Source: an uncultured Pseudomonadales bacterium
Lineage (GTDB): Bacteria; Pseudomonadota; Gammaproteobacteria; Pseudomonadales; Azotimanducaceae
Direction: 5' to 3'
Length of the DNA stretch: 64,000 nucleotides
Assembly (NCBI GenBank): GCA_964348085.1
Contig: CAYGBI010000012.1
Span: 215 to 64,214 of the forward strand
This document shows, piece by piece, positions 22,250-40,717 of the stretch. Under the pieces are notes generated by a model, which ran no database searches, was not told the origin of the DNA, and saw only the letters and a program-made list of their open reading frames with translations. How positions within the stretch are numbered: position 1 is the stretch's first letter; each line of letters starts with the position of its first letter. The translations under genes were made by a program, and so were the position numbers.

Positions 22250-22255
22250 TGGATG

Positions 22256-22991: not shown

Positions 22992-23849
22992 CTAACCGGC
23001 GGCGGCGAGTTCGGCGGCGGCGAGGGTGTTCTCCAACAGCGACGCGCGGGTGACCGGACCGACGCCGCCCGGCACCGGCGTAATCCAGCCGGCGCGCTCG
23101 GCCACCTCTTCGAAGCGCACGTCGCCGCGCAACGACCCGTCGGGCTGCGCGACGATGCCGACGTCGATAACGACGGCGCCGGGTCGCACCCAGTCCGCCC
23201 CCAACAAGCCGGCTTTGCCGGTGGCGGAGACCACGACATCCGCTTGTGCCACGTGTTCGCGGGCGGACTTGGAGAAGCGATGCACCGTGGTCACCGTGCA
23301 GCCGGCGAGCAGCAACTCGAGCCCCATCGGCCGCCCCACATGGTTGGAGGCGCCCACCACCGTAGCGTGCAAGCCGCGCAGGGGAACGCCGGTCGCGGCC
23401 AACAAGGACATCACCGCCTTCGGCGTGCAGGGGCGAATGCTGGGTTCGCGCAACACCAAGCGACCCATGTTGTGTGGATGCACGCCGTCGACGTCTTTCT
23501 TCGGCAGCACGTGCTCGGTCACCCGCAACGCGTCGATATGCGGCGGCAACGGCAGTTGCACCAAGATGCCGTCGAAGCCGGCATCGGCGTTTAGCTCGTC
23601 GATGATCGCGAGGAGTTCCGCTTCGCTGGTTTCGGCCGGCAAGTGACGGACTTTCGCCTTGAGTCCGACCTGCTCGCAGTCCTTGCGCTTGAGGCGCACA
23701 TAGATCAGCGAGCTAGGGTCGTCGCCGACCAGCAACACCGCGAGCCCCGGCGCACGCAGGCCACGCGCGCGCCGGGCGCGTACCTTGGCGGCCAAGTCGC
23801 GGCGGATGGCTCGGGCGATGGCGTTGCCGTCGAGTATTCTGGCGGGCAT
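22992..23849 (-). CDS. folD: bifunctional methylenetetrahydrofolate dehydrogenase / methenyl-THF cyclohydrolase
   Basis: Internal ATG at 23849 ([12 protein letters not shown]...). FolD-like throughout ([33 protein letters not shown]). Confidence 0.95.
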
Positions 23850-23925
23850 GGACGTTCCTTGGCAGCGTGGGATTGTACGCCAACGTCGCATGACGGCAGT
23901 CGGTCAAGCGCTTGCGCCACAAGGC

Positions 23926-24792: not shown

Positions 24793-24873
24793 GACAAGCG
24801 AAATTGCCTAGGGTTGGTGCGCGTGTCAAACAGCCTCACGACGCCTTAGGGCCAGCCACCGGATTGGCAGCCC

Positions 24874-24980
24874 ACCGAGCCGGGGACACCCACCGGCCAT
24901 CGAACCGGGGACACCCACCGGCACCGAGCCGGGGACACCCACCCCGACCGCCACCGAGCCGAGACACCCACCGCCGACGG
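24874..24980. repeat. four imperfect tandem 24-30-bp repeats (core ACCGAGCCGGGGACACCCACC) in a divergent intergenic region
   Basis: Units start at about 24874, 24899, 24923 and 24953. They lie between the TauD start (24792, minus strand) and the acyl-CoA dehydrogenase start (25138, plus strand). Confidence 0.75.
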
Positions 24981-25137
24981 GCGACCAACCGCCCGACCCA
25001 TAGGCATCGCCGCCGCCCCTTGCACTCGTCGCCAAGCGCGGATTTACTTAACACTCACAACCCCCGCCGCAACAACAGGCCATTGGCCTGCTGTGGTCTG
25101 TCGTAGTTTGTTGAGAGTGGCCTCTATGGGAGAAGCG

Positions 25138-26310
25138 ATGAGTTTTCGAGAGGAAGTGCGAGATTGGCTGGATGAGAACTGTCCGCCGAGCATTAGACGT
25201 CCCGCCCGTGCGAACGAAGGCACCGGCGGCGGGCGGCGAGCCACCTACCCCAACCCGGAAGTGAAGCTTTGGTTGGACCGCATGGCCGAGAAGGGCTGGA
25301 CCGCGCCGATGTGGCCGAGGGAGTACGGCGGCGGTGGTCTGAACAAGGAAGAGGCGGGCGTCCTCGGCGAGGAACTGCGCCGCATTCGGGCACGGCCGGC
25401 GCACACGGGCATGGGGCTGTCGATGATCGGCCCGGCGCTCCTCGAGTTCGGCAGCGAAGAACAGAAGCAGGAGCATCTGCCGAAGATCGTACGCGGCGAT
25501 ATCTGGTGGTGCCAAGGCTACAGCGAACCCGGCTCCGGTTCCGACTTGGCCAGCCTGCAAACCCGCGCTGTCGACGACGGCGACGACTTCATCGTCAACG
25601 GCTCGAAAATTTGGACCTCCGGCGCCAACTTCGCCGACTGGATGTTCTGCTTGGTGCGCACGGACCCCGACGCGCCGAAACACGAAGGCATCTCGTTCAT
25701 CCTGTTCGACATGGAGACGCCGGGGGTCTCGGTAAAGCCCATCAAGCTCATCAGCGGCGCGTCGCCGTTTTGCCAGACTTTCTTGGACGATGTGCGCGTA
25801 CCGAAGAGGAATCTGGTCGGCGAACGCGGCAAGGGTTGGACGGTGGGCAAGCGCTTGCTGCAGTACGAGCGCACCTCCATCGGCGGCATGGGCGGCAGCG
25901 GTGGCGGCGGGGATCCGCTGGCCGAACTGGCCAAGCGCTACGCCGGCCACGCGAACGGCAAGATCGACGATGTCGCCTTACGCAGACGGCTGCTCGATCA
26001 TCGCATCACGGACCGCGCGTACGGATTGACCGTTCGGCGTAGCGGCGAGGAGATGCGCTCGGGGCGGGCACCGACATTCCTGTCGTCGATGTTCAAGCTG
26101 TACGGCACGGAACAAAACAAGAGGCGTTACGAAATCATGCTCGACATCATGGGCAGCCAAATGCTCGGCTGGGAAGGCGAGGACTTCCGCCCGCGCGAAC
26201 TCTCGGCCACCCGCGAGTGGCTGCGTTCCCGCGCCAATTCCATCGAAGGCGGCACGTCCGAGGTGCAGCTCAACATCATCGCCAAGCGTATTCTCGGCTT
26301 GCCGGACTAA
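25138..26310 (+). CDS. acyl-CoA dehydrogenase family protein
   Basis: ATG at 25138 preceded by GGGAGAAG. ACAD motifs are present (WCQGYSEPGSGSDLASL, GSKIWTSGA, C-terminal GGTSEVQLNIIAKRILGLP). Confidence 0.9.
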   Translation: MSFREEVRDWLDENCPPSIRRPARANEGTGGGRRATYPNPEVKLWLDRMAEKGWTAPMWPREYGGGGLNKEEAGVLGEELRRIRARPAHTGMGLSMIGPALLEFGSEEQKQEHLPKIVRGDIWWCQGYSEPGSGSDLASLQTRAVDDGDDFIVNGSKIWTSGANFADWMFCLVRTDPDAPKHEGISFILFDMETPGVSVKPIKLISGASPFCQTFLDDVRVPKRNLVGERGKGWTVGKRLLQYERTSIGGMGGSGGGGDPLAELAKRYAGHANGKIDDVALRRRLLDHRITDRAYGLTVRRSGEEMRSGRAPTFLSSMFKLYGTEQNKRRYEIMLDIMGSQMLGWEGEDFRPRELSATREWLRSRANSIEGGTSEVQLNIIAKRILGLPD

Positions 26311-26353
26311 GCGAGCGGATTGAAGCGGGTCGAGAGCAGCGGAGGGAGACAGG

Positions 26354-27337
26354 ATGAGACGATTACTGTCCGCGTTGGCGGTTATCGGGTGTGCCAGCGT
26401 TGGCGGCGGCCAAGAGGCGAGCGAGTCGGCGGTCGAGACGCTTGATCTCGATCAGCTACTCGAGCGGTTCGGCTGGAGTTTCGACACGACGGAGATCACG
26501 TCGCAGAAAGTCGGCGACGGCCTCTATGTGCTGTTCGGCGTCGGCGGCAACATCGCCGCCTCCGTGGGCGAGCAGGGCGTGCTCATCGTCGATGACATGT
26601 TCCCGGAGATGATTCCCAAGATAGAGGCCGCCATCCGGGAAATACGCGGCGACACAGCCGGCAACGGTGGCATCGACTTCGCCATCAACACGCACTGGCA
26701 CTTCGACCATGCCGAGGGCAACTTGGCGCTCGGCCCGGCGGGCACTTGGATCGTGGCGCACGAAAACTCGGCAGCGATGATGGCGAAGCCCAACATCATC
26801 AATCTCGTGAGCCTAAAGTACGCGCAACAAGCCTATCCACCGGCGGCACGACCGGCCATCTCCTTTGATGACCGCATGCGCTTTCACTTCAACGGCGAAG
26901 AAATCGACGTCGTGCATGCCGGCCCGGCGCACACTGCCGGGGATGCGGCGGTCATCTTTCGCAACCACAACGCCGTACATTTCGGCGATGTGTTCAACAA
27001 CACCGGCTATCCGTTCATCGACGCCGACAGCGGCGGGGGCATAGACGGCATGATCGCCTTCTGCCAAGCCATCCTAGACGAGATGCAGTCGGGCGCGGTC
27101 ATCATTCCGGGCCACGGCGAAGTCACCGACATCGCCACCTTGCAGGCGTATATCGACATGCTCACGACCGTGCGCGAACGGGTGGCCAAAATGATTGCCG
27201 AAGGCAAGGGACTCGCGGACGTGATCGCGGCCAAGCCGACGGCCGGTTTCGACCAAACCTACGGCCCGGCGGAGAACGCCCTCGGCTTCGTGGACCGGGT
27301 GTACACGAGTCTGGTGCGCGATATGGCCGCCGACTAG
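26354..27337 (+). CDS. secreted MBL-fold metallo-hydrolase
   Basis: Signal peptide, then the HxHxDH motif (NTHWHFDHAEGN), with HTAGD and GHG downstream. Confidence 0.85.
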   Translation: MRRLLSALAVIGCASVGGGQEASESAVETLDLDQLLERFGWSFDTTEITSQKVGDGLYVLFGVGGNIAASVGEQGVLIVDDMFPEMIPKIEAAIREIRGDTAGNGGIDFAINTHWHFDHAEGNLALGPAGTWIVAHENSAAMMAKPNIINLVSLKYAQQAYPPAARPAISFDDRMRFHFNGEEIDVVHAGPAHTAGDAAVIFRNHNAVHFGDVFNNTGYPFIDADSGGGIDGMIAFCQAILDEMQSGAVIIPGHGEVTDIATLQAYIDMLTTVRERVAKMIAEGKGLADVIAAKPTAGFDQTYGPAENALGFVDRVYTSLVRDMAAD

Positions 27338-28173
27338 CGAATCGGGGGTAGCACGCTACTCCCCGCTACTCTCGCCGAGGTGCTATCGCCGAGGTGATTC
27401 TTGAAGAACGCCACGGTTTCCTCGCGTGCGCGCTGTTGCGCCTCGCCCCGAAAGCCGTGCTTCGCGCCTTCGATCACCACCACCTTGTTGGTCACGCCCA
27501 CCTCGTCAAGCGCGGCGCTCATACGCTCGCTGTTGCTTAAGGGCACGAGTTCGTCCAAATCGCCGTGAATCAGCAAGACCGGCGGGTCGTCGTCGCTCGC
27601 GTAGTTGATGGGCGAGATTCCGGCGGCGAGTTCCGGGTCGAAGTCCAAGGCGGGGAAGCGTTCACTCGGCCCGGCGATTCCCGCTAAATCCACGGGCGGG
27701 AAGTAGGCGACTACCGCTTGCACGCGATTGCCGCCTTCGGGCGCCAGCCCCAGCATCAGCGACAGATGCCCGCCGGCGCTGCCGCCATGGACGCCCAAGC
27801 GCTCGGCGTCGATGCCGAATTGCTCCGCGTTGGCGCGAACATGCTCGACGGCTTTGCGCACGTCCGCCACCGCCTCCGGTACTTTGAAGCGCGGCGCACT
27901 GCCGTGATGCACGGCGAACACGGTGAAACCCGCGTTCAACAGATGATCGAACCACGGCAGCCGTTCTTCCGGCGGTCGCCAGTTCGAGAACCAGCCGCCG
28001 CTGACCATGAACAGCACTGCCGCGCCATTGGGGCTCTCCGGCTGTATCACGTCGTAAGTCAGCGCCATGCCGGCCTTGTGGCCGTACACCACATCGGGCG
28101 TGATGGCTGGCTTGGCAGCCGCGACGGAGCCGATTGCGAACGCCAAGACGGCGACCAACGCGCGAGCTTGCAT
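27334..28173 (-). CDS. secreted alpha/beta hydrolase (esterase/lipase-like)
   Basis: ATG at 28173 with a GGAGG SD. Signal peptide MQARALVAVLAFAIGSVAA and nucleophile elbow GGSAGG. The rest of tracked ORF 27334..28530 upstream of this ATG is not supported. Confidence 0.85.
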   Translation of the reverse strand: MQARALVAVLAFAIGSVAAAKPAITPDVVYGHKAGMALTYDVIQPESPNGAAVLFMVSGGWFSNWRPPEERLPWFDHLLNAGFTVFAVHHGSAPRFKVPEAVADVRKAVEHVRANAEQFGIDAERLGVHGGSAGGHLSLMLGLAPEGGNRVQAVVAYFPPVDLAGIAGPSERFPALDFDPELAAGISPINYASDDDPPVLLIHGDLDELVPLSNSERMSAALDEVGVTNKVVVIEGAKHGFRGEAQQRAREETVAFFKNHLGDSTSARVAGSSVLPPIR

Positions 28174-28314
28174 TTCCCCTCCAGAGGAACTGTCGACCGG
28201 ACGCATCATAGCGCACCCATGCGACCTTGCGACCGGCTGCCGTCGGCCGCCGCCTTGACACGCCAAGCAACGCCGGTGAGACTCGCGCCACCCTAGAAAG
28301 CGCCGGCAAGGCCA

Positions 28315-29040
28315 ATGATTGAGAAAGAAATCGACATCGCGACCCCCGACGGCGCCATGAACACCTTTGTCACGCATCCCGAAGAAGGCGGGCCGTTTCC
28401 GCTCGTCATCTTCTATATGGACGCCCCCGGCAAGCGCGAGGAGCTGCACGACATGGCGCGTCGCATTGCCACGGTCGGCTACTACGTCCTGCTGCCGAAC
28501 CTCTACTACCGGCAGGTGCGCGAGTTTCACCTAGGGATGCCGAACGCCACTCGGGAGCGTATGGCCGAGCTGATGGGTAGCCTGACCAATGCAAAGGTGT
28601 GCGCCGATACGCAAGCGCTGCTCGACTTCGCCGGCGAGGAGGAAGCGGCGAGCGACGGCCCGGTGGGCACGGTCGGCTACTGCATGAGCGGCCCGTTCGT
28701 GTTCGCCGCAGCGGCCGAGTTCGGCGAGCGCATCAAGGCGTCGGCGTCCCTGCACGGCGTCAGGCTATGCACGGACGCTGCGGATTCGCCGCATCTGACC
28801 GCAGATCGCATTCAGGGCGAAATCTACTTCGGTTGCGCCGAAAACGACGCTTGGGCACCGCCGGAAATGATCGATGCGCTTGGCCAGCACTTGGCCGAAG
28901 CGGGTATCGACTTCCGCATCGAATGGTATCCCGGCACCGGCCACGGCTTCGTTTTCCCGCAGCGCGACGGGCTGTACCACAAGGCCTCGGCGGAACGGCA
29001 CTGGGAACGCCTTTTCGCGCTGTTCCAGCGGAATCTCTAA
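28315..29040 (+). CDS. dienelactone hydrolase family protein
   Basis: 241 aa, DLH-like (GYCMSGP nucleophile motif, C-terminal GTGHGF). Confidence 0.85.
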   Translation: MIEKEIDIATPDGAMNTFVTHPEEGGPFPLVIFYMDAPGKREELHDMARRIATVGYYVLLPNLYYRQVREFHLGMPNATRERMAELMGSLTNAKVCADTQALLDFAGEEEAASDGPVGTVGYCMSGPFVFAAAAEFGERIKASASLHGVRLCTDAADSPHLTADRIQGEIYFGCAENDAWAPPEMIDALGQHLAEAGIDFRIEWYPGTGHGFVFPQRDGLYHKASAERHWERLFALFQRNL

Positions 29041-29082
29041 GCGCCGCCCACTGCCCCGCTACGCGTCGAGGGAGAGAGAGCC

Positions 29083-29973
29083 ATCAAGATTGAGCCGTGC
29101 GGCGGCGCCTTTGGCGCCGAGATCACCGATGTTGCCTTGAACGACCTGAGCGACGGCGAGTGGCGCATGATCGAGGACGCCTTTCACGCATACGCCGTGC
29201 TGATCTTTCCGGGCGCGAATCTCACCGAGGCGCAACACATCGCTTTCAGCCGCCGGTTCGGTCCGCTCGAGCGCACCCTCTCGCGACGCGCAACGCGGCC
29301 GGAAATCTCGCTGCTCTCCAATGTCGGCAAGGACGGCGAGGTGGCGAAGCCGAACGACCCTTTGGGACTCTTTCTCAAGGGCAATCGATATTGGCATACG
29401 GATTCCTCCTTCAAGAAGGTAGGTGCCAAAGTCTCGCTGCTGCGTGCGGTAGTCGTTCCCGATAGCGGCGGCGACACCGAGTGGGCGGACATGCGCGCCG
29501 CTTGGGACGCGCTCGACGCGGACACGCAGCGGCAACTCGACGGCCGCCAAGCCGTACATTCCTATGCTTGGTCGCAAGGGCGAATCGGCGGCATCGGTGT
29601 GCTTTCCAAACAGGAATTGGACGCCCTGCCGCCGGTAGCGCATCCCTTGGTGCGCACGCATCCGGTCACCGGGCGCAAGAGTCTCTACGTCGGTCGCCAT
29701 GCGTCGCACATTCTTGGCATGGCCGCGGAATCCGGCAGAGCGTTGCTCCAGCGCCTGACGGAAGACGCCTGCCAGCCGCCGCGCATCATCCGGCATCACT
29801 GGCGAGCGGGCGACATCGCCGCGTGGGACAATCGTTGCGTGCTGCACCGTGGCCATCCTTGGCCATTCGAACAGCGACGGGTGATGAGGCGCACGACGGT
29901 GGCTGGCGACGGGAACAACCCTTGGGCCGTCTCCCCCGCCGACGGGCTGCTCGCGGAGACGGCGGATGCTTAG
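29083..29973 (+). CDS. TauD/TfdA family dioxygenase (start codon uncertain)
   Basis: The tracked ORF starts at TTG 29137. The in-frame upstream stretch IKIEPCGGAFGAEITDVAL is typical TauD N-terminal sequence, and GGAGAGAGAG lies just upstream of ATC 29083. The HTD triad motif (YWHTDSSF) is present. Confidence 0.75.
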   Translation: MKIEPCGGAFGAEITDVALNDLSDGEWRMIEDAFHAYAVLIFPGANLTEAQHIAFSRRFGPLERTLSRRATRPEISLLSNVGKDGEVAKPNDPLGLFLKGNRYWHTDSSFKKVGAKVSLLRAVVVPDSGGDTEWADMRAAWDALDADTQRQLDGRQAVHSYAWSQGRIGGIGVLSKQELDALPPVAHPLVRTHPVTGRKSLYVGRHASHILGMAAESGRALLQRLTEDACQPPRIIRHHWRAGDIAAWDNRCVLHRGHPWPFEQRRVMRRTTVAGDGNNPWAVSPADGLLAETADA

Positions 29974-30799
29974 GCGGGCCGGCGGCTACCTGCTGCCGCG
30001 CGACGAAGCGCCGGCGGCGAGTAGGCAATTGGAGCAAGAGGGCTATGCGGTGCTGCGCGGCGTGCTCGCCGAAGACGAGCTGCCGTCCATCCATGCGGAA
30101 ATCACCCGTGTCTACGAGACCATGCCGACCGACGGCCGCGCCCGCGTTCACGACGACGACTTCCGCTACGAAATGTTCAACAAAAGCGCGACTGCACAAC
30201 AGCTCGTCGCACGTCGCGAGATCCTCGACACCATCGAGCCGCTCTTGGGCGAGGACTGCCACATCATCGCCAACACCTGTTGGCGCAACCCCGCCGGCGC
30301 GACGCATCGTCACGGGGGAGGCGGCTGGCATATCGACGCGGGGCCGCACATCCCGCGTCCGCCGGGGGTGGAGTGGCCGGCGGAAATCCCCTACCCGGTG
30401 TTCGCCATCGGCGTACACATCTTCCTCGAAGACTGTTCGCTTGCGTCTGGCCCGACGGCGGTTATTCCGCGTAGTCACAAGAGCGGGCAGCCGCCGCCGG
30501 CGGACCGTCGGGACGACGAAACGCTAACCTGCAACGGCCGGAGCGCCCGACCGTTGGTGGCCGCCGCCGGCGACATCGCATTCTTCGTCTCCGATGTTTG
30601 GCATCGGCGTCTGCCGACCCGGGAGGAAGACGAGGGCCGGTTCTTCCTGCAAGTACACTACGCTCGTCGCGACATCGCGCAGCGCATAAAGCCGACCGCG
30701 GCGGTCAATCACATCGATGCCGACGCCTTGGCGCGCGTGGAATCGGAACGTGAAAGGCGGCTGCTCGGCATTCACCCCCGTGGCTTCTACGACGGCTAG
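29966..30799 (+). CDS. phytanoyl-CoA dioxygenase (PhyH) family protein
   Basis: 277 aa with WHIDAG (HxD) and a distal His (VWHRRLP). Overlaps the upstream TauD stop by 8 nt. Confidence 0.8.
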   Translation: MLRRAGGYLLPRDEAPAASRQLEQEGYAVLRGVLAEDELPSIHAEITRVYETMPTDGRARVHDDDFRYEMFNKSATAQQLVARREILDTIEPLLGEDCHIIANTCWRNPAGATHRHGGGGWHIDAGPHIPRPPGVEWPAEIPYPVFAIGVHIFLEDCSLASGPTAVIPRSHKSGQPPPADRRDDETLTCNGRSARPLVAAAGDIAFFVSDVWHRRLPTREEDEGRFFLQVHYARRDIAQRIKPTAAVNHIDADALARVESERERRLLGIHPRGFYDG

Positions 30800-30905
30800 C
30801 AGTCCGTCGGGCTTGGCAGCGGAAGCCGCGAAGTCCGACGGAGTGCTAGGGCGGCTTGGGCTGGGGCGAAAGGCAGTGTTTCGAGGCAACGGCGCCAAGC
30901 CTAGG
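30797..30905 (+). repeat. CTAG-bounded palindromic repeat, copy 3
   Basis: TAGCAGTCCGTCGGGCTTGGCAGCGGAAGCCGCGAAGTCCGACGGAGTGCTAGGGCGGCTTGGGCTGGGGCGAAAGG... Its first TAG is the stop codon of the PhyH gene, and it ends at CCTAGG. Confidence 0.8.
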
Positions 30906-30916
30906 ACGTAAGACAT

Positions 30917-32113
30917 ATGGTGCTCATCCCCGAACGTTGGCGCACGCCGATCGCATTCCTTGTGCTCGCAAGCATCGCGATGCCGCTCGGTTTCGCCGCG
31001 TGGCAAGCGCTGCTCAACAACTTCGCCATTGAAGAGGCGGGGTTCACGGGGCGGGAGATGGGCTGGCTGCAAAGCCTGCGCGAAGTCCCCGGCTTCCTCG
31101 CCTTTACCGCGGTATTCGTGATTCTGGTGCTGCGCGAGCAGACCTTCGCCATCGTCTCGGTGGCGGTGTTCGGCCTCGGCGTCGCCATTACCGGTTTCTT
31201 CCCGAACGAATACGGCCTGTATTTCACGGCCGTGCTGATGTCCATCGGCTTCCACTACTTCGAGACCATCCGGCAGTCCCTGTCGCTGCAATGGCTGAGC
31301 AAGGACGAAGCGCCGCGCATTCTTGGCCGACTCATCGCCGTCGGCTCGGCGACATCGCTGGTGGCATTCGGCGCGATGTACGTCGTGCTCGAAGTCTTCA
31401 ACGTCGACTATCACTGGATATATCTCGTCGCCGGCGGCGGCGCACTTGTCATCGCCATCGCACTCTCGCGTTTCCCGCACTTCGAGGGGCGAACGCCGCA
31501 GCGCAAGGAGATCGTGCTGCGCTCCCGCTACTGGCTGTACTACAGCTTGACCTTCCTATCTGGTGCGCGCCGGCAGATTTTCGTCGTCTTCGCCGGTTTT
31601 CTGATGGTGGAGAAGTTCGGCTATTCGGCGGCCAATATCGCCGCGTTGTTCCTCGTCAACCACCTGTTCAACTTCTTCTTCGCCGAGCGGATTGGCGCTT
31701 GGATCGGCCGTATCGGCGAACGCCACGCTTTGACGCTGGAGTACGTCGGCCTGATTCTCGTCTTCACCGCCTACGCGTTCGTCGACAACGCCTATTTCGC
31801 CGCCGGCTTGTACATCCTCGACCACCTGTTCTTTGCCTTGGCGATCGCCATCAAGACCTACTTCCAGAAAATCGCGGACCCGGCGGACATCGCCTCCACG
31901 GCCGGCGTTTCCTTCACCATCAACCACATCGCCGCGGTCATCATCCCCGCCGTGCTCGGCTACGTCTGGCTCGAATCCCACACGGCAGTGTTCTTGATCG
32001 GTGCCGTGTTCGCGCTGCTGTCGCTTACGATGGCGCAGAACGTGCCGTCAAGCCCGCGACAGGGCAACGAGACCGTGGTGGGGCTGGCGTTAGGGCGAGC
32101 CCGGGCGGGGTAG
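30917..32113 (+). CDS. MFS transporter
   Basis: 398 aa with about 12 predicted TM segments and MFS-like composition. Confidence 0.85.
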   Translation: MVLIPERWRTPIAFLVLASIAMPLGFAAWQALLNNFAIEEAGFTGREMGWLQSLREVPGFLAFTAVFVILVLREQTFAIVSVAVFGLGVAITGFFPNEYGLYFTAVLMSIGFHYFETIRQSLSLQWLSKDEAPRILGRLIAVGSATSLVAFGAMYVVLEVFNVDYHWIYLVAGGGALVIAIALSRFPHFEGRTPQRKEIVLRSRYWLYYSLTFLSGARRQIFVVFAGFLMVEKFGYSAANIAALFLVNHLFNFFFAERIGAWIGRIGERHALTLEYVGLILVFTAYAFVDNAYFAAGLYILDHLFFALAIAIKTYFQKIADPADIASTAGVSFTINHIAAVIIPAVLGYVWLESHTAVFLIGAVFALLSLTMAQNVPSSPRQGNETVVGLALGRARAG

Positions 32114-32281
32114 CTGCGCCGACTATTCGGCCCCGCGGTGCCAACTCCCGCCACCGTAGCACCTCGCTCCGTTGACGATAACCGTGCGTCAGAGAGAAGG
32201 GCTGAGCTCGTGTGGAACCACCGAAACGAGGCGTGATCGATGCCTCGCACGTTGGCGCCTCAAGCAACGGTAGCGTTTGCG

Positions 32282-32662
32282 TTACCGTGCAGCGCGCAGC
32301 AGTTCCGCGATCTCGGCCTTGCCTTCCTTCATCGCCTCCGGGTCCGTCAGCGGAATCCGAAATGCCCTCGCGACGGTTTGGGTGGATTGCCAATCGAGTT
32401 CCGCGACGGCTTGAGCGTTGACGCCGTTGTTGTCGGTCGCGTGTACATCTGCGCCGGCGGCAAGCAGCATCTTGGCAATCTCCGCCCGGCCTAGAAGGGC
32501 GGCGAAGATCAGTGGCGTGCTGCCCATGTCGGGATCTCGTGCGTTGGCATCGGCACCCTTGGCGAGGACCACCTTAACGGTAGCGGCATCGTCGCCAATG
32601 ATCGCAAACGCGATTTCTTGGAAGCCAACACCGGGCGAACCGTCGCCGGACCCGCCTAGCAT
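32282..32662 (-). CDS. ankyrin-repeat protein
   Basis: Two to three ANK units (GSTPLIFAALLGRAEIAKMLLAAGADVHATDNNGVNA). The frame stays open upstream of the ATG, so the N-terminus is uncertain. Confidence 0.65.
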   Translation of the reverse strand: MLGGSGDGSPGVGFQEIAFAIIGDDAATVKVVLAKGADANARDPDMGSTPLIFAALLGRAEIAKMLLAAGADVHATDNNGVNAQAVAELDWQSTQTVARAFRIPLTDPEAMKEGKAEIAELLRAAR

Positions 32663-32750
32663 CGCAATGATCCCGGTTCGCTCCGTCTCGCGGTATTCTG
32701 GCCCACGGTCAGTTGCCGCCTGCCGATTCGCGCTGGTCGTACGTCGCCGC

Positions 32751-32832
32751 TAGCAGTCCGACGGAGTGATAGGGCGGCTTGGGTTGGGGCGAAAGGCGGC
32801 GCCGGGAGGCGACGCCTTTCGTGGCGTTAGCG
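32751..32832 (+). repeat. CTAG-bounded palindromic repeat, copy 4 (lacks the 5' hairpin arm)
   Basis: CTAGCAGTCCGACGGAGTGATAGGGCGGCTTGGGTTGGGGCGAAAGGCGGCGCCGGGAGGCGACGCCTTTCGTGGCGTTAGCG. Confidence 0.75.
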
Positions 32833-32846
32833 CACTGCATTGGCTG

Positions 32847-33033
32847 TAGTTCGGCGCCGGTATGAAGCCGAACCCGGCCTGTTCCAGCAACTTCGCCACG
32901 CCAATGGTGACCAAGTCGCCGTACTCCGGCCCGATGATCTGCACGCCGATGGGTAGGCCGCTGGCGTCGGGGCCGGTGGGGATGACGGTGGATGGTAGGT
33001 AGGCGACGCTCGCCAGCCCCGCCCAGAACACTT
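32847..33033 (-). pseudogene. 3' fragment of the amidase gene (duplicate of about 33639..33825)
   Basis: Encodes ...FWAGLASVAYLPSTVIPTGPDASGLPIGVQIIGPEYGDLVTIGVAKLLEQAGFGF..., nearly identical to the C-terminus of the 33632..35077 amidase. About 8 mismatches in about 190 nt by eye. It has no 5' part. Confidence 0.85.
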
Positions 33034-33306
33034 TTGTCCGCCATCAAGACCTACCTCCAGAAAATCGCCGACCCGGCGGACATCGCCTCCACGGCCGGTG
33101 TTTTCTTCACCATCAACCACATCGCCGTGGTCATCATCCCCGCCGTGCTCGGCTACGTCTGGCTCGAATCCCACACGGCAGTGTTCTTGATCGGTGCCGT
33201 GTTCGCGCTGCTGTCGCTTACGATGGCGCAGAACGTGCCGTTGAGCCCGCGGTAGGGCAACGAGACCGTGGTGGGTCTGGCGTTCGGGCGAGCTTGGGCG
33301 GGGTAG
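33034..33306 (+). pseudogene. 3' fragment of the MFS transporter gene (duplicate of about 31840..32114)
   Basis: Encodes AIKTYLQKIADPADIASTAGVFFTINHIAVVIIPAVLGYVWLESHTAVFLIGAVFALLSLTMAQNVP..., matching the MFS C-terminus. About 13 mismatches in about 265 nt by eye. A premature TAG is present and the 5' part is missing. Confidence 0.85.
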
Positions 33307-33325
33307 CGACGAGCGCCGCATGCTC

Positions 33326-33580
33326 CTAACAGCCCCGATCCCTTTCGATCCCGCCGGCTCGGACTCCTGATTGAGAGGAATCCTCCGTTGGTGGCGGGCT
33401 CGTCCACCCAATTGACGGAACCACGACGGCCTCCGGGGCGTTCACATGGGCCTTAACTACGACCACGCCATGTTGTGTCTGTGCCGAGCGACTGGACCAG
33501 TCGACCGTATCGGAAACATGAAAGGAAGTAGCTGCCGTACCCTCCAGAATATAGGAGACGCTGCGTTGCCTATTGGTCAT
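33326..33580 (-). CDS. hypothetical small protein (84 aa)
   Basis: Strong SD (GGAGGAAGG) 4-5 nt upstream of the ATG. It lies 51 nt downstream of the amidase stop on the same strand. No recognisable family. Confidence 0.35.
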   Translation of the reverse strand: MTNRQRSVSYILEGTAATSFHVSDTVDWSSRSAQTQHGVVVVKAHVNAPEAVVVPSIGWTSPPPTEDSSQSGVRAGGIERDRGC

Positions 33581-33631
33581 TCAACCTTCCTCCAACCCTC
33601 GAAGCTGCGTGATGCCCGATCCACTCACCGC

Positions 33632-35077
33632 TCAACCATAGTTCGGCGTCGGTGTGAAGCCGAACCCAGCCTGCTCCAGCAACTTCGCCACGCCAATGGT
33701 GACTAAGTCGCCGTATTCCGGCCCGATGATCTGCACGCCGATGGGCAGGCCGCCGGCGTCGGGGCCGGTGGGGATGACGGTGGATGGTAGGTAGGCGACG
33801 CTCGCCAGCCCCGCCCAGAACACTTGATCGAAGTACGGCTGCTGCTTGTCATTGACCGCTATCGTGCGTTCGCCAAAGGGACCTTGGTCGTGCGGGAACG
33901 CCGAGGTGGCCATGATCGGCGCCAGCACGATGTCGAAACGGTTGAAGAAGTCGTGCCAGCGCCAACGAATGTGCGTTCGCTTTTCGTTGTTTGCGGTCCA
34001 GTCGCGGAAACGCGCCACCTGCGAGCGTTGGATGACGGCGGAAAGGCTCATGTCTTCCGGCGGCAGGTCTTCTACTTGACGCACGATGGTCTGATAGCGG
34101 TCTTCCGGCATCCGCGCGGACATGGTGGCTTGCAGCAGGCACTGATACACGAAGTGGGTGTGCTCCGAATCCACAGGACGAGCCTCGAAATCCACCGTCG
34201 CGCCCATTCCGGAGAGCGCGTCCGCGACCGCATCGACGCGCGCGGATACCGTGGCGTCCACCGGCGCCATCGCGTCGTCGCGCCATACCGCGACCTTGAG
34301 TTCGCCTGCCGTCTTGCGGAGTTCCGGCAGCGCCAGCGCGAGACCCCGGCTGTCGATTTCGTTCGGTCCGGCCATCGCCCGCACCGTCGTTTCAAGGTCC
34401 GACGCCGAGCGTGCCAGTGGACCGATCACGGAGATGTCGGAGGGCGTCAGAACGCCCGGCATGGCGTGGCCCCTCGGCGGCAATAGGTTCCAAGTGGGTT
34501 TGTGGCCGAAGACGCCACAGAAGTGCGCCGGGTTGCGAATGGAGCCGCCGATATCCGAGCCGGTCTCCAAGCCGGTGAGCCCCGCCGCTAGCGCCGCCGC
34601 CGAGCCGCCGGACGAGCCGCCGGGCGTGCGCCGCAAGTGCCACGGATTGTTGGTAGTGCCGTATATCGCGTTGTAGCTCTGGAAGTCCGAGAGCATGAGC
34701 GGCACGTTGGTCTTGCCGAAGATGACGGCGCCGGCGGCTTTTAGGCGGGAGATGGAGAGCGCATCCCTTGCGGCGATGTTGTCCTTGAGCTCGGGCACTC
34801 CCCACGTCGTAGGGGTGCCGGCCACGTCGTAGGACTCCTTCACCGTCATTGGCACGCCGTGCAGCGGTCCCCAATGTTCACCTCGCGCCAGCGCCTCGTC
34901 CGCTTGCCGTGCCCGTGCCATAGCTTCCTCGCGGACCTGCACGATGATGGCGTTGAGGTCCGAGTTGAAGCGGTCCACACGCTCGAAGTAGTACGCCAGC
35001 AGTTCGGCGCTGCTGATGTCCTTGTTTCTGACTCGTCCTGCTAGTTCGCCGGCGCTGGCGAATGCCAAGTCGCCCAC
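33632..35077 (-). CDS. amidase (amidase-signature family)
   Basis: 481 aa with the AS signature GGSSGGSAAALAAG and a catalytic Ser-cisSer-Lys context. Confidence 0.9.
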   Translation of the reverse strand: MGDLAFASAGELAGRVRNKDISSAELLAYYFERVDRFNSDLNAIIVQVREEAMARARQADEALARGEHWGPLHGVPMTVKESYDVAGTPTTWGVPELKDNIAARDALSISRLKAAGAVIFGKTNVPLMLSDFQSYNAIYGTTNNPWHLRRTPGGSSGGSAAALAAGLTGLETGSDIGGSIRNPAHFCGVFGHKPTWNLLPPRGHAMPGVLTPSDISVIGPLARSASDLETTVRAMAGPNEIDSRGLALALPELRKTAGELKVAVWRDDAMAPVDATVSARVDAVADALSGMGATVDFEARPVDSEHTHFVYQCLLQATMSARMPEDRYQTIVRQVEDLPPEDMSLSAVIQRSQVARFRDWTANNEKRTHIRWRWHDFFNRFDIVLAPIMATSAFPHDQGPFGERTIAVNDKQQPYFDQVFWAGLASVAYLPSTVIPTGPDAGGLPIGVQIIGPEYGDLVTIGVAKLLEQAGFGFTPTPNYG

Positions 35078-35143
35078 AAGCCCCTCCTGTGGTGCGGTAG
35101 AGATGGGTAGATCGAGCGGGCGACTGTGACGGCGGAGGGCGGA

Positions 35144-37888
35144 TTAGTCAAGCTTCGACAACTGCCGCCGCAGCAATTGCGCCGCTGCGACATCGGCGGG
35201 CTTTGCCGAAAGCAGTATCGCATCGTCCATGGAGAGCGCCGCTCGCGGGCCGTGTTCGCTGATGAGCCGCCCGAGCACGGTGGCGTCGGTGTGGAAGCGG
35301 TGCGACGGCGACACTTGATCGAGGGCAGTGGCGATGGCCGACGTAGTTGTCCGCGCCAAGTCCACGCCGGCCGCCGCCAAGCAATCGAACACCTCCTCGC
35401 CGGTGATCGGCGCGAGCGTCGCGTGCCGCACGGGTTGTCGCGTCAGTAGCGCGTCCACTAGCGCTCGACACACGACGTCTCGGGTAGTGAATTGCCACCG
35501 CCAACCGCGCTCGACGTCTGGAAAGACGCCGGCGGCGATCAACGCCTTCAGCGTGCTCGCGAGACGATCATTGCGCGGGTGGCCGAGGAGGTGCGGAATG
35601 CGCACTACGCTCGTCGGCAGGCCACGCGCAGCCGCTTGCTGAAGCAATGCTTCCGCGGCGAGTTTGGTTCGCGAGTATGCGTCGGCGCCCGAGGCCGCCA
35701 ATCGCTGCGCTAGCAGCCCTTCGACCTCAGGGGTAGCCTCCTTCCGCTCGCCGTCGCCGAGCGGAAATATGGCGCTGGAGGAGACGTGTACCAACGGCAC
35801 GGCGCGTTCGGCGGCCAGTCGAATCAGCCCTTTGACGGCGTGCGTGTTGAGCGGCGCCAAATCGTCGTAGGACGCGAATGCGTCGACGTTGGCGGCGATG
35901 TGGACGATCGCGTCGATCCGCCGCCCCAACTGGACCCATTGTCGAACCGGGAGGCCGAATCGCGGCTCGGTGAGGTCGCCGTGAATCGCGGTCCCGCCAC
36001 GGACCTTGCCACTGCGAACGAGCGCCAACACCTCGAACCGGCCACGGGCAGCGTCGACGAACGCTCGACCGACGTAGCCCGAAGCGCCGGTGACGAGCAC
36101 TGTGCGCGGCGGCGTCATCGGCGAGGGAGCGGCGCTGCCGATGCGTAATCCCGGCGCGAGTTGCGGCAGTCGCCAATCCTTGACTTCGCCGACTCGTGCG
36201 CCTGCGGCGATGAAGGCCGCAAGCGCGGCCGGGCGCGAATGCTGCAGGAAATCGGCGACGCGAATGCGCCTACCCGTGCGTTGCTGCAATATGCCGCAAA
36301 GCGCGATTGCCGAAAGGCTGTCGCCGCCGCAGTCGATGAAGTCGTCTTTGCGGGTAACGGTCGGGTCGTTCAGCACTCGGTGAAAGGCCGCCAGCACGTC
36401 GCGTTCGAGGTCCGCGGGTCGCCCGGGCGCGACAGCGGGCGCCGCACGCCGATCCGCTTTGCCCGACGAGGCAAGCGGCAACGCCGAGACGGTTTCGATG
36501 CGCCCCGGCACGGCGTGAGCGGCTAGGCGCGCGGCCGCGAACTCGCGCAGGTCGGCGGCGAGCGTTCTCGCGTCCGCGTTTGGCGTAGGAACGACGAAGG
36601 CAACCAACTTGCCGTCCGCCTCGCGTACGGAAACGTCGGCGACGTCCGGATGCCCGGTGAGCATGTCCGCGACATGCTCTGGGTTCACCCGAGCGCCGCG
36701 AATCTTGATGCCGTCGCCGCACCGGCCCAGTACGCGCAACCGGCCGTCGGCCGTCAATACGCCCAAATCACCCGTGTCGTACACGCGAGCATCGCCCCAC
36801 GGGGCGCCCGCGAGTGTGAAGAACGGCGATTCGGATTGCCCTTCGGCGCCGGCGACATAGCCGGACGCCAAGCCTGGGCCGGAGACGAGGATGCGGCCCG
36901 GCCGACCGACCGGCAGCAATCGCTCGCGCTGGTCCACATCGGCGATGGCGACGCGGGCGAAGTCCGCGACCTCGAGCGCCGGCATCTCGCCGTCGTCGTT
37001 GATCGGCGCGGCGGCGACATCCGCGCACTCGGCGGTGGAGTAGAGATTGAGCACGGCAACCTCGGGCAGCGCGCGCCGCACCCGCTTGGCGAAATTGTCG
37101 GTCACCCGTTCGCCGCAGAGCACCAGCCAGCGCAGCTTGCGGAGCGCGTTCACGGCTTCGGCGGAGTTGAGGCAGGCGGCGAGCAGCGTTGGCGTCACCA
37201 TCAAGCGGGTGATCGCGTGGCGAACGAGTACCGCTGCCAAGGCTAGAGGATCGCGCATGGCGTTGTCCGGAATCATCACCGCCGGCACACCGTTGAAGAG
37301 CGCCGGCACGACGTCCCAAATGCCGAAGATATTGCAGCCGACGGCATCGTCCGGTCGATACGGCATCAGCGCCGTGCGCCAAGCGTGGGAGCGCAGTGAG
37401 CCGATTTGGTCTGTCGTCACCGCCTTCGGCGAGCCGGTGGAGGTGCCGGAGGTCAACAGGATATGCGCCGTTCGGCTGGTGGTCCGTGGGACTTCGGGCG
37501 GCGACGCCGTGGGCGTTGCGGGAGGCGCGGTTCGGAGCAAGATTTTCGGCACGCCGAAGTCCGTCGCTTCGTCCGTCACCAAGACGTCAAGGCGTAGCAG
37601 CGCGAGCACCTTGGCCATCACCGGCGCCGGCAAGCGACTCAGCGGCGTGAACACCATCCCGGCGCGCAAGCAGGCGAAGTAGGTGATCACCAACTCGACG
37701 CTCGGTTGCAGCAGGACGCCCACCCGGGCGCCCACGCCGTGGCCGTCGCGCAGCGCCGCCGAGCACACCTCGATGGCGTGGCGCAATTGCCGATAGGTGA
37801 GCGTGCGAGTGGCGTCGACCAGCACGACTCTGTTCGGGGCGCGACGCTCCGCGCGCAGGAGATTCGCAAGTAGAGTCATGGCGCCCAC
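35144..37888 (-). CDS. NRPS-like adenylation - carrier protein - thioester reductase (A-T-R) enzyme
   Basis: Adenylation motifs are LLTSGTSTGSPK, YDTGDLG, GRCGDGIKIRGARV and LPLASSGKADR. The phosphopantetheine attachment site is GGDSLSA. The C-terminal SDR reductase has VLVTGASGYVGRAF and YSRTK. Confidence 0.9.
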   Translation of the reverse strand: MGAMTLLANLLRAERRAPNRVVLVDATRTLTYRQLRHAIEVCSAALRDGHGVGARVGVLLQPSVELVITYFACLRAGMVFTPLSRLPAPVMAKVLALLRLDVLVTDEATDFGVPKILLRTAPPATPTASPPEVPRTTSRTAHILLTSGTSTGSPKAVTTDQIGSLRSHAWRTALMPYRPDDAVGCNIFGIWDVVPALFNGVPAVMIPDNAMRDPLALAAVLVRHAITRLMVTPTLLAACLNSAEAVNALRKLRWLVLCGERVTDNFAKRVRRALPEVAVLNLYSTAECADVAAAPINDDGEMPALEVADFARVAIADVDQRERLLPVGRPGRILVSGPGLASGYVAGAEGQSESPFFTLAGAPWGDARVYDTGDLGVLTADGRLRVLGRCGDGIKIRGARVNPEHVADMLTGHPDVADVSVREADGKLVAFVVPTPNADARTLAADLREFAAARLAAHAVPGRIETVSALPLASSGKADRRAAPAVAPGRPADLERDVLAAFHRVLNDPTVTRKDDFIDCGGDSLSAIALCGILQQRTGRRIRVADFLQHSRPAALAAFIAAGARVGEVKDWRLPQLAPGLRIGSAAPSPMTPPRTVLVTGASGYVGRAFVDAARGRFEVLALVRSGKVRGGTAIHGDLTEPRFGLPVRQWVQLGRRIDAIVHIAANVDAFASYDDLAPLNTHAVKGLIRLAAERAVPLVHVSSSAIFPLGDGERKEATPEVEGLLAQRLAASGADAYSRTKLAAEALLQQAAARGLPTSVVRIPHLLGHPRNDRLASTLKALIAAGVFPDVERGWRWQFTTRDVVCRALVDALLTRQPVRHATLAPITGEEVFDCLAAAGVDLARTTTSAIATALDQVSPSHRFHTDATVLGRLISEHGPRAALSMDDAILLSAKPADVAAAQLLRRQLSKLD

Positions 37889-37994
37889 CCGGGCGTTGGC
37901 CGCCGAACTTGGGTCACTGGCCGGACGTCTCGGCCGAGAAGCCGACGCGAGCGCTTCTCGGCGTCGCTGCCGCCGCCGACAAGCCCGTTGGACG

Positions 37995-38309
37995 CTAGCT
38001 GATGACCGAGTTTGGCGTCGGTACGATACGGGTGACTTCGATATCCGGTTGCATCAGCGCGGCCACGGTCGGCGCGATGTCGTTCTTCCACTCGTCGGTC
38101 TGATAGACAGCCGCGTACAAACGCTCTCGTTCTTCCTCCGAGGCGAAGCGACGCAGCCAAACGTAGGTGGTTTCGTCCTCTCCTCGGAAACTGCCGGCGA
38201 TCACCATGCCTTTCGCCACTTGGAAGGGGATGATGGTGCCTTCCATGAACCTCACCCACTCGTCCATCTTGCCGTCGTTGATCTTGTAGCGCCGCAATTC
38301 GTAGAACAC
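37995..38309 (-). CDS. NIPSNAP family protein
   Basis: GTG at 38309 preceded by AGGGGA. FYELRRYKINDGKMDEWVRFMEG... is typical of the NIPSNAP dimeric alpha-beta barrel. Confidence 0.7.
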   Translation of the reverse strand: MFYELRRYKINDGKMDEWVRFMEGTIIPFQVAKGMVIAGSFRGEDETTYVWLRRFASEEERERLYAAVYQTDEWKNDIAPTVAALMQPDIEVTRIVPTPNSVIS

Positions 38310-38445
38310 TCGTCTTCCCCTTCGTCGCGGCGGGAGGGCCGCGTATGAACACATACGTTTAGTTTACACGCCGCGTTCAGTTCATGCCGCGGGCGCTACG
38401 CCGCGTTCGAACTATACTGCCGCCTCCAACAAACGGAGAGCAGCG

Positions 38446-39600
38446 ATGGCGGCGTTGGACGGTATGCGCATTCTCGACATGACGCAGTGGGAGGCGGGCA
38501 CGTGCTGCACGCAAAGCCTCGCCTTCCTCGGCGCCGACGTGGTGAAAGTGGAGCGCCCCGAAGTAGGCGATCCGGGTAGGGGACGCGCCCGGGGAGAGGT
38601 GCGCGACGCCGAGTACTTCGTCAACTGGAACAGCAACAAACGCAGCATCACCTTGCACTTGGACACCCCGGAAGGCCGCGACTTGCTATTGAAGATGGTG
38701 CCGCACTACGACGTGTTCGTCGAAAACTACGGCCCCGGCGTGGTGGAGAAGCTCGACATCGGCTACGACGTGATGCGCGAAATCCACCCCACCATCATCT
38801 ACGCGCGCATCAAAGGCTTCGGCACCAACGGCCCGTACGCGCACTACAAGTGCATGGATATGGTGGCGCAAGCCGCCGCCGGGGCGTTCTCCATCACCGG
38901 CGAACCAGACGGCCCGCCGATGCGCCCCGGCCCGACCATGGGCGATGCCGGCACCGGTATGCAGGCGGCGCTGGCTATCGCCGCCGCTTGGGCGCAAAAG
39001 CAGCGCGACGGGGTGGGCCAGCTCATTGAACTCTCCATGCAGGAGGCGATGACCTACTACCTGCGCACCGCGGTTTCCCGCACTCGCTTCGGCACCGAGC
39101 CGACGCCGCGCACCGGCAACGGCGACAATCCGTTCGTGTCGCTGTATCCGTGCTTGGGCAACGGCGCCAACGACTACGTGTTCATCATGGCCGTCAACCC
39201 ACGCATGCGGGCGGGCGTATGCCGCGCCATCGGCAAGCCCGACCTACAGGGCGACGCGACGACCGTGCGCCGAGAAATCGAAACGTGGACCCGCACCAAG
39301 AGCAAGCGCGAGGCGATGGCGACGCTCGCCGAAGAGGGCGTTTGCGCCAGCCAAGTCTACGAAACGCACGACCTGTTCACCGACCCGCACTTGCAGGCGC
39401 GGGGCTTCATCCAAGAGGTGAGTCACGCCGAGCACGGCGATGTGCGCTTGCTCGGCTGGCCGGCGCGCATGTCCAAGAGCGCCGTGTCGATGCGCGCCGC
39501 GCCGTTGCTCGGCGAGCATACGGACCAAGTGCTGGCCGAGGATCTCGGATTGACGCCAAGTGCGGTCGAAGCGCTGCGGGAACGCGGCGCCGTCGGTTGA
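38446..39600 (+). CDS. CaiB/BaiF family III CoA-transferase
   Basis: Begins LDGMRILDMTQWEAGTCCTQSLAFLGADVVKVERP. Full-length family III CoA-transferase similarity. Confidence 0.9.
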   Translation: MAALDGMRILDMTQWEAGTCCTQSLAFLGADVVKVERPEVGDPGRGRARGEVRDAEYFVNWNSNKRSITLHLDTPEGRDLLLKMVPHYDVFVENYGPGVVEKLDIGYDVMREIHPTIIYARIKGFGTNGPYAHYKCMDMVAQAAAGAFSITGEPDGPPMRPGPTMGDAGTGMQAALAIAAAWAQKQRDGVGQLIELSMQEAMTYYLRTAVSRTRFGTEPTPRTGNGDNPFVSLYPCLGNGANDYVFIMAVNPRMRAGVCRAIGKPDLQGDATTVRREIETWTRTKSKREAMATLAEEGVCASQVYETHDLFTDPHLQARGFIQEVSHAEHGDVRLLGWPARMSKSAVSMRAAPLLGEHTDQVLAEDLGLTPSAVEALRERGAVG

Positions 39601-39685
39601 GGGTCGGGTTGAGGGTCGGCTGAGAAATGGCGCGCACGGTCGAGTAACGCCGGGAACTCGAGCGCGGGGAGCGCCGAGGGCGTCG

Positions 39686-40717
39686 TTAGTCGAGCGTGCT
39701 ACCGTCCTTCGCCACCACCAGCTTGCCTCGCCCGGGCTCGCCCGCTCTCGCCATCCGTCCGATTACCCATGCGCGTTCCCCTGCGGCGGTCAAGTCCTCG
39801 CAGATCGCTGCGGCGTCGGCCTCCTCCACACACAGCACGAAGCCGACGCCGACGTTGAACGTGCGCAGCATTTCGAGCTCCGCTATTCCGCCGGCTTGCT
39901 GCAGAAACGCGAACGTGGCCGGTCGCCGCCAAGCGTCGAGGTCGATGTGCGCCGCCAACCGGGGCGGGAACATGCGCGGCAGGTTGTCCACGAAGCCGCC
40001 GCCGGTGACGTGACACATGCCCTTCACCCGGTCCAGCACCGAGCGCACCGAACGCACGTAGATTCGCGTGGGGGCCAGCAAGTCGTCGAGCAATTTCCCC
40101 GTCACGCCCCCGCCTTGCGTCGCTAGGATGCGGCGGATCAACGCGTAGCCGTTGGCGTGAGGTCCGCTCGACGCCAAGCCGACGAGGGCGTCGCCAGCTT
40201 TGATGCCATCGCCGGTGACGATGCGCTGCCGCTCCACCACGCCGACGCAGAACCCGGCTAGCTCGTAGTCGCCCGGGCGGTGGAGCCCCGGCAGTTCGGC
40301 GGTTTCGCCGCCGGCCAATGCGCAACCGGCCAGTTCGCAACCGCGCGCGATGCCGGCGATGACCCGCTCGGCGACATCCACGTCCAAGACGCCGGCGGCG
40401 TAGTAATCCAAGAACAACAGCGGCTCGGCGCCCGAGACGAGCACGTCGTTGACGCACATCGCCACCAAGTCTTGCCCGACATCGTCGTGGCGCTGGTGGT
40501 CGATCGCGAGGCGAAGCTTGGTGCCGACGCCGTCGGTACCGGCCACTAGGACGGGCTCGCGATAGCCTTCGGGCAGCGTGCAAAGCGCCGCGAAACCACC
40601 CAAGTCCGAGAGCTGCTCCGGTCGCCGCGTGCGTGCCACCGAGGACGCAATACGTCTCACCAACTCGTTGCCGGCGTCAATGTTCACGCCAGCGTCGCGA
40701 TATGTCAGTCGGCTCAT
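39686..40717 (-). CDS. purM: phosphoribosylformylglycinamidine cyclo-ligase
   Basis: Begins YRDAGVNIDAGN... followed by DGVGTKL. Full-length PurM similarity. Confidence 0.95.
   Translation of the reverse strand: MSRLTYRDAGVNIDAGNELVRRIASSVARTRRPEQLSDLGGFAALCTLPEGYREPVLVAGTDGVGTKLRLAIDHQRHDDVGQDLVAMCVNDVLVSGAEPLLFLDYYAAGVLDVDVAERVIAGIARGCELAGCALAGGETAELPGLHRPGDYELAGFCVGVVERQRIVTGDGIKAGDALVGLASSGPHANGYALIRRILATQGGGVTGKLLDDLLAPTRIYVRSVRSVLDRVKGMCHVTGGGFVDNLPRMFPPRLAAHIDLDAWRRPATFAFLQQAGGIAELEMLRTFNVGVGFVLCVEEADAAAICEDLTAAGERAWVIGRMARAGEPGRGKLVVAKDGSTLD

Follow-up and report, generated by a model that had tools for sequence, protein, structure and literature searches.

A probable remnant of an old tandem duplication between convergent transporter and amidase genes in an uncultured Pseudomonadales bacterium

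How does a chromosome come to carry, in the gap between two intact convergent genes, the 3' ends of the same two genes fused back to back? The question is raised by a locus in an uncultured bacterium of the order Pseudomonadales (family Azotimanducaceae; GenBank assembly GCA_964348085.1, contig CAYGBI010000012.1, forward-strand positions 215–64,214; this stretch of 64,000 nucleotides (nt) is called the window below, and all positions are counted from its first letter). Here an intact gene for a major facilitator superfamily (MFS) transporter faces an intact amidase gene, and between the two lie a first spacer (Y1), an amidase 3' fragment joined to an MFS 3' fragment, and a second spacer (Y2). 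The initial annotation of the window had offered two origins: single-crossover (Campbell-type) integration of a circularised allelic segment from a related strain, and tandem duplication followed by replacement of the spacer. We think it somewhat probable that a unit was once duplicated head to tail across a non-homologous joint, that complementary parts were lost afterwards, and that the region is what remains of this old joint after decay. The features of the locus are collected in Table 1.

Repeat searches and alignments confirm the layout of full MFS gene, spacer, back-to-back amidase and MFS 3' pieces, spacer, and full amidase gene. Two pairs of direct repeats are involved: D1 (31846–32114 versus 33039–33307; 269 nt, 95% identity) and D2 (32847–33033 versus 33639–33825; 187 nt, 96% identity), values that agree with the 95–96% first estimated by eye. 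Besides a dispersed repeat element, D1 and D2 are the sole long repeats in the window. Their order is MFS 3' end, amidase 3' end, MFS 3' end, amidase 3' end, that is, head to tail. Copy-to-copy homology ends 1 nt past the MFS stop codon and two codons before the amidase stop codon, close to the stops as had been described, and the reported dissimilarity of the two spacers also holds: Y1 (32115–32846) and Y2 (33308–33638) do not align, with Smith-Waterman scores below the shuffle mean on both strands. No further copy of the MFS or the amidase gene was found in the 3.76-Mb assembly. Two short open reading frames (ORFs) in the region, at 32750–33031 and 32992–33255, are gene pieces and not genes.

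Three genomes of the clade can be compared. The assembly that holds the window (G000) is of metagenome type and consists of 142 contigs. L201 (ERZ25070786, ctg150444c), which comes from another sample and is independent of G000, is a single contig of 4,119,841 bp, probably a circular long-read contig to judge by its size and name; it is ~95.5% identical to G000 over 17 kb, with the same gene order. L202 is a 4.3-kb contig of SRR23261226 with an MFS protein that is 95% identical to that of G000. These two were the only close relatives recovered in searches of 5.8 billion proteins with the MFS and amidase products. Exact-protein look-ups with the MFS, amidase and ankyrin products of G000 gave no match, and a metagenome scan with the MFS protein returned only relatives of at most 75% amino-acid identity and no alleles from the same clade. 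In a genome-collection scan with the amidase, the best hits were metagenome-assembled genomes of the 'Candidatus Azotimanducaceae' type, in the Pseudomonadales.

L201 has the layout of G000 and the same joint between the fragments, ACACTT-TT-GTCGGCC, with no sequence common to both sides at the break. In L201, amidase sequence ending in ...CCCAGAACACTT is followed by TT and then by GTCGGCCTG... of the MFS gene, starting at position 31745 (codon 277). In G000, amidase sequence ending in ACACTT (to 33033) is followed by TT (33034–33035), GTC (33036–33038) and then MFS sequence from 31846; relative to L201, there is a 98-nt deletion after the GTC, and the MFS fragment of L201 is longer by these 98 nt (370 nt in all). 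The TTGTC of G000 is thus made up of 2 nt of filler and 3 nt of MFS sequence, in a form of the joint derived by later deletion. The CTT(T) microhomology that had been proposed for the joint is absent, the break consisting of ACACTT, the TT filler and the GTC of MFS. The worry that the junction might be an assembly chimera is answered by L201: since the identical joint is present in an independent 4.12-Mb contig, it is real and inherited, the 98-nt deletion being the only part for which the G000 assembly is the sole source.

L202 provides the unduplicated state. Its contig carries a PhyH gene, the MFS gene, a 285-nt Y2-like segment (2058–2342, ~79% identity), an ankyrin piece (87%) and an intact amidase gene ending in ...PNYS-TAA, and the unit that is repeated in G000 is contiguous in it. 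The duplicated structure with homologous Y1 and Y2 is therefore not common to all relatives: L202 is unduplicated, and Y1 and Y2 are unalignable. The order in L202 shows that Y2 originally adjoined the 3' end of the MFS gene and that the ankyrin piece adjoined that of the amidase gene; in G000 these ancestral neighbours are retained by the gene fragments and not by the intact genes. Since L202 has the Y2-like segment and the ankyrin part side by side in one spacer, Y1 and Y2 are complementary leftovers, two halves of one ancestral spacer, rather than alternative alleles or replacements. The suggestion that Y1-type and Y2-type spacers might exist as alternative alleles among relatives finds no support: the only close relatives found are L201, which is duplicated, and L202, which has both halves, and neither a Y1-only nor a Y2-only allele was seen. 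L202 is also not descended from the duplicated form or wrongly assembled from it, because its junction of Y2 to the ankyrin piece is missing from G000 and its order could not arise from that of G000 by recombination between the repeats.

The two fragments have decayed. The MFS fragment carries a premature in-frame TAG at 33253–33255. When changes are polarised by L202 and 10–11 outgroups from the genus, five of them (F>L, S>F, A>V, Q>stop and R>W), all at otherwise conserved positions, are common to the fragment in G000 and L201, as are 2–3 silent changes. The majority of the shared changes are C>T, and only 2–3 shared changes fall on the intact MFS lineage; the C>T bias and the replacements on the fragment lineage are as would be expected for neutral decay. 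In the amidase fragment the stop codon TAA has become CAA (32840–32842; TTG on the plus strand), and there are one replacement and two silent changes besides. Both repeats together show 11 silent and 10 replacement differences (our own calculation), a ratio that would be expected if one copy of each pair were neutral and the other changed only at silent sites. This suggests roughly 3–4% neutral change per lineage since the duplication, the age of which would be comparable to that of the split of G000 and L201 (pS 0.08), whereas L202 would have split off long before (pS 0.25).

The history that we favour would run as follows. The ancestor would have had convergent MFS and amidase genes separated by a single spacer, made up of a Y2-type segment with its small ORF and an ankyrin piece comprising the last module. 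A unit reaching from codon 277 of the MFS gene to codon 418 of the amidase gene, ~1.3–1.6 kb long (1,329 nt if measured on L202, and somewhat longer once the repeat element and the additional ankyrin sequence are counted), would have been duplicated in tandem by non-homologous joining of amidase sequence ...ACACTT, a 2-nt filler TT and MFS sequence GTCGGCC.... In any tandem duplication the genes cut at the ends of the unit survive whole in the outer positions; as the MFS and amidase genes face each other, what is left inside is their two 3' pieces, set back to back, and this matches the locus. As the interior of the unit is present once, later deletions are required: (i) copy 1 would have lost most of its Y2-type segment, where the ~98 nt at 32115–32212 now stand, and (ii) copy 2 would have lost the ankyrin piece, leaving one copy of each small ORF. 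Deletions entering the intact MFS gene, the ankyrin ORF, the small ORF or the amidase gene would have been selected against, and since they could not enter these, the breaks would lie beside stop codons. Both fragments would then have decayed as pseudogenes, and G000 would later have lost 98 nt at the joint.

We infer that a single genome gave rise to the duplication and that each of the two losses was a deletion of its own, at a later time. The ~45-nt remnant in copy 1 of the right end of the Y2-type segment, which has an alignment score reached by 2 of 2000 shuffles against L202 and by 11 of 2000 against the right end of Y2, points to duplication followed by deletion. Of the tandem route that had been proposed at first, the duplication itself stands, as it gives the layout; the subsequent replacement of the spacer falls away, the cores being halves of one ancestral spacer in L202. 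Duplications that lose their internal homology in this manner are the ones that would be expected to survive.

Several points weigh against this history. Firstly, the interior of the unit is not present twice: Y2 and the ankyrin piece each occur once, and all that is left of a second interior is the ~45-nt remnant. Fresh, perfect repeats of ~1.3–1.6 kb would have had to escape recombinational collapse until the two deletions had occurred. Secondly, the ~98 nt at 32115–32212 have no match in the G000 genome or in 300 genomes of the family that would indicate their origin. Thirdly, the copies have not diverged evenly. Those of the MFS repeat are identical over one stretch of 113 nt, while their last 65 nt differ at eight sites; the two pairs of L201 have diverged to different degrees, by ~6% for MFS and ~2% for amidase; and the amidase fragment of G000 is closer to the full amidase gene of L201 (2/187 differences) than to that of G000 itself (8/187). 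The uneven divergence and the affinity of the amidase fragment appear to require conversion or exchange beyond the simple story. Lastly, the clade sample is small, comprising the three genomes.

The MFS fragment gives no donor-allele signal like that of the amidase fragment. Divergence between G000 and L201 is ~1% across 32316–33623 and ~7.6% directly on both sides of this block. These patterns indicate clearly enough that gene conversion and exchange between strains have acted at the locus, and we therefore keep circle integration and template switching as live rivals to the tandem duplication.

Integration of a circle is the stronger of these rivals, and we consider it unlikely. Two sub-lineages of the MFS-Y2-ankyrin-amidase ancestor would each have lost one half of the spacer, and an MFS-to-amidase fragment of one, circularised by end joining at the TT joint, would have integrated into the other by a single homologous crossover in the MFS or the amidase 3' end. 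The population does exchange DNA (0.5–11% divergence per 200 nt, and the low-divergence block just described), and the nearness of the amidase fragment to the intact gene of L201 would be natural for such an import; yet the searches with the MFS and amidase products, which covered 5.8 billion proteins, brought up no Y1-only or Y2-only allele. Mosaic alleles would be consistent with the uneven divergence of the repeats, but the changes on the fragment lineages resemble pseudogene decay and not the silent divergence of alleles. The product would be born with short repeats only and hence, presumably, be stable at once, an advantage bought at a price: the same number of events as under the tandem model, and two lineages occurring together besides. 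A duplication-type scar, as the single-crossover proposal had it, is present, whereas its allele-merging version is unsupported by the relatives found, L202 and L201.

Less likely again is one complex replication error with serial template switching, of the break-induced or fork-stalling type. Its path would lead from the MFS stop to the ankyrin piece, from the amidase interior to MFS (the TT joint), and from the end of Y2 to the amidase stop. No unstable intermediate would be needed, and the locus has three novel junctions without evident homology, one of them with the 2-nt filler; random switches would, however, be unlikely to leave every functional unit intact exactly once. The ~98 nt at 32115–32212 might have been inserted, with or without a template, where synthesis switched, but the searches of the G000 genome and the 300 family genomes gave no source for them, and the Y2-type remnant in copy 1 is more readily explained by a subsequent deletion than by a clean jump.

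The remaining explanations of the layout can hardly be right. A chimeric contig assembled from co-existing strain variants, conceivable for a metagenome-type assembly in 142 contigs, is opposed by the identical joint and order in the independent 4.12-Mb contig from another sample, by the state of the fragments, in which one stop codon has arisen too early, another is gone and conserved residues are replaced, so that they are not functional alleles of a second strain, and by a joint that shares no k-mer with either gene, so that graph mis-traversal cannot make it. Equally improbable is recombination between dispersed repeats, or the action of an insertion sequence that makes a long target duplication: the element has ~195 BLAST matches in the genome and two copies in direct orientation (30797–30891 and 32742–32832), but the joint at 33033–33039 lies inside two coding sequences and not in the element, the unduplicated L202 is without the element at this site, and 32114–33638 has neither a transposase gene nor terminal inverted repeats (ORFs, repeats and Pfam domains searched). 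Repeat-element and transposon readings were rejected, as the joint falls in coding sequence, and so was an inversion-breakpoint duplication, as the repeats are direct and only ~1 kb apart.

It is very doubtful that the two direct-repeat pairs act as a standing recombination device. If they did, recombination within the MFS pair would release a ~1.2-kb circle with the ankyrin module, and recombination within the amidase pair a ~0.8-kb circle with the 84-amino-acid ORF of Y2, such that the population could shed either small gene and regain it through re-integration of the circle. The 113-nt identical tract within a repeat that has otherwise diverged by ~5%, together with the low-divergence block between strains, hints at continuing exchange.

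Table 1. Features of the MFS–amidase locus and their positions in the window
Feature	Position	Strand	Remarks
Copy of dispersed repeat element	30797–30891		Between the PhyH gene and the MFS gene
Intact MFS transporter gene	30917–32113	+	398 amino acids; Pfam MFS_1; orthologues in 24 species of the genus
Duplicated part of the MFS gene	31745–32113 (last 122 codons), plus the base after the stop, 32114	+	Extent taken from L201
Left part of Y1	32115–32212		~98 nt; in L201, not in L202
Diverged remnant of Y2-type right end, then ankyrin 3' flank (putative)	32213–32281		Colinear with L202 2323–2404
5'-truncated ankyrin gene piece	32282–32741	-	ORF 32282–32662, 126 amino acids; Pfam Ank
Copy of dispersed repeat element	32742–32832		In G000 and L201; not at this site in L202
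Amidase 3' fragment and its ancestral downstream flank	32833–33033	-	Last ~64 codons
TT filler at the non-homologous joint	33034–33035		Same joint in L201
MFS 3' fragment	33036–33306	+	GTC (= 31745–31747), 98-nt deletion, then 268 nt (= 31846–32113)
Y2, ancestral neighbour of the MFS 3' end	33307–33631	-	~79% identity to L202 2058–2342
84-amino-acid ORF	33326–33580	-	Strong Shine-Dalgarno site, GGAGGA; intact in L201 and L202
Final ~10 codons of an upstream gene otherwise lost (putative)	33577–33609	-	...SFEGWRKVE*; ATGA stop/start overlap with the 84-amino-acid ORF
Intact amidase gene	33632–35077	-	Amidase-signature enzyme of 481 amino acids; Pfam Amidase, NCBIfam PRK06170; fragment pairs with 33639–33825

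The sequence in Y1 that had been called an ankyrin gene is indeed ankyrin sequence, though not a whole gene: in tblastn comparisons the ORF matches only the last module of the multi-module ankyrin proteins of relatives, and upstream of its ATG the similarity extends, with no start codon, as far as ~32740. As the ORF (32282–32662) is intact in the three strains, with pN/pS ~0.34, it may still be expressed as a small, one-module ankyrin protein. To its left, the ~98 nt at 32115–32212 sit where Y2-type sequence stood in copy 1, and L201 has a 33-nt insertion in the left part of Y1 (its positions 9337–9369, between window positions 32255 and 32256). The dispersed element to its right is 78–91 nt long, and the copies at 30797–30891 and 32742–32832 are in direct orientation. 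It is GC-rich with an internal hairpin; further copies in the window lie at 22150–22258, 53279–53380 and 56165–56253, and other species of the genus have weaker matches.

The 84-amino-acid ORF in Y2 appears to belong to a small conserved family, its first 37 residues being 62% identical to a small ORF from a different genus within the same taxonomic family. It gave no match in a word-based protein search and falls in no Pfam or NCBIfam family. In the other genus (L210, 1395–2049), the small ORF follows a 138-amino-acid ORF through an ATGA overlap, and in G000 the final ~10 codons (33577–33609) are all that is left of this upstream gene; the position of the 84-amino-acid ORF after the amidase gene is therefore secondary and not that of an operon partner. 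The 138-amino-acid ORF matches the C-terminal part of a model for an SDH-type Clp-fold protease only weakly, with a score below the threshold. A promoter and terminator scan of 32000–33700 yielded nothing above chance.

In the 24 other species of the genus that were sampled, and in the nearest species (81–84% amino-acid identity), the MFS and amidase loci are far apart, on different contigs or up to megabases from each other on one chromosome; the MFS gene follows TauD-PhyH, and the amidase gene adjoins a NIPSNAP gene. A comparison of spacers across the genus is impossible for this reason, and for the same reason the convergent MFS–amidase adjacency, with its spacer of truncated gene pieces, appears to be specific to the small clade and older than the duplication. 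Between the amidase and NIPSNAP genes, G000 and L201 have a gene for a 914-amino-acid adenylation/carrier/reductase protein (35144–37888). Amidase and NIPSNAP are adjacent in other species of the genus, without this gene at that position, and it looks like a clade-specific insertion.

Over window positions 23000–40000, divergence between G000 and L201 is strongly mosaic (0.5% to 11% per 200 nt), a pattern that indicates frequent homologous exchange within this uncultured lineage. The G000 genome has many other local duplications at 85–96% identity (on contigs C5, C22, C48, C8, C2 and others); it contains 367 repeat pairs of at least 150 nt, several of which are 1–2 kb tandem arrays.

Tandem duplications are frequent in bacteria and are usually gone without trace; those seen in the laboratory are young, large and unstable. 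To our knowledge, old duplication joints that can be dated and polarised have rarely been described. Here, three genomes give the pre-duplication state, the original joint and a further-decayed joint, and the locus can therefore be used as a worked example of (i) the stabilisation of a small duplication through loss of its internal homology, (ii) the decay of pseudogene fragments in a GC-rich uncultured gammaproteobacterium, and (iii) the extent to which exchange between strains blurs the history of a duplication. The annotation needs correcting as well, since neither the ankyrin "gene" nor either of the two short ORFs is more than a gene piece, and the 84-amino-acid ORF is in a secondary position next to the amidase gene.

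Among other known systems, Campbell-type scars of suicide plasmids and merodiploids are alike in that direct repeats flank the inserted material and two excision products are possible. Unlike them, the present locus contains no vector or replicon sequence and no alternative alleles were found; a Campbell-type route would here need a circle made from a chromosomal fragment by end joining. Reciprocal loss among duplicated genes or whole-genome duplicates is similar in that redundant units are lost from different copies, leaving a single, reordered set, and differs in that whole genes or chromosomes are involved in the classical cases and two short ORFs in a 1.5-kb bacterial intergenic unit in ours. 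Shyamala and colleagues reportedly described, in 1990, tandem duplications in enterobacteria mediated by repetitive extragenic palindromic (REP) sequences; our genome, too, is rich in short dispersed palindromic elements, one of which lies inside the unit, but the join point is not in a repeat element.

Further close parallels are cat-gene amplification in Acinetobacter baylyi, also a member of the Pseudomonadales, and duplications in Salmonella, with their homology-independent join points (PMC9997567; Reams and Neidle papers cited there). In A. baylyi, tandem duplications usually arise from illegitimate joints with 0–5 bp of identity (PMC9997567). Ours resembles them in its head-to-tail chromosomal unit, in the cut genes that are intact on the outside and in its novel joint (0 bp of identity and a 2-nt filler). 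It differs from the A. baylyi duplications, which span 12–290 kb, in being ~1.3–1.6 kb long and old (~4–5% divergence between the copies), in having no visible selection for dosage, and in that each copy is without a complementary half of the interior. Seen beside these systems, the scar is real and well resolved, and also ordinary: its mechanism is already known in kind and leaves the general understanding of bacterial duplications as it was.

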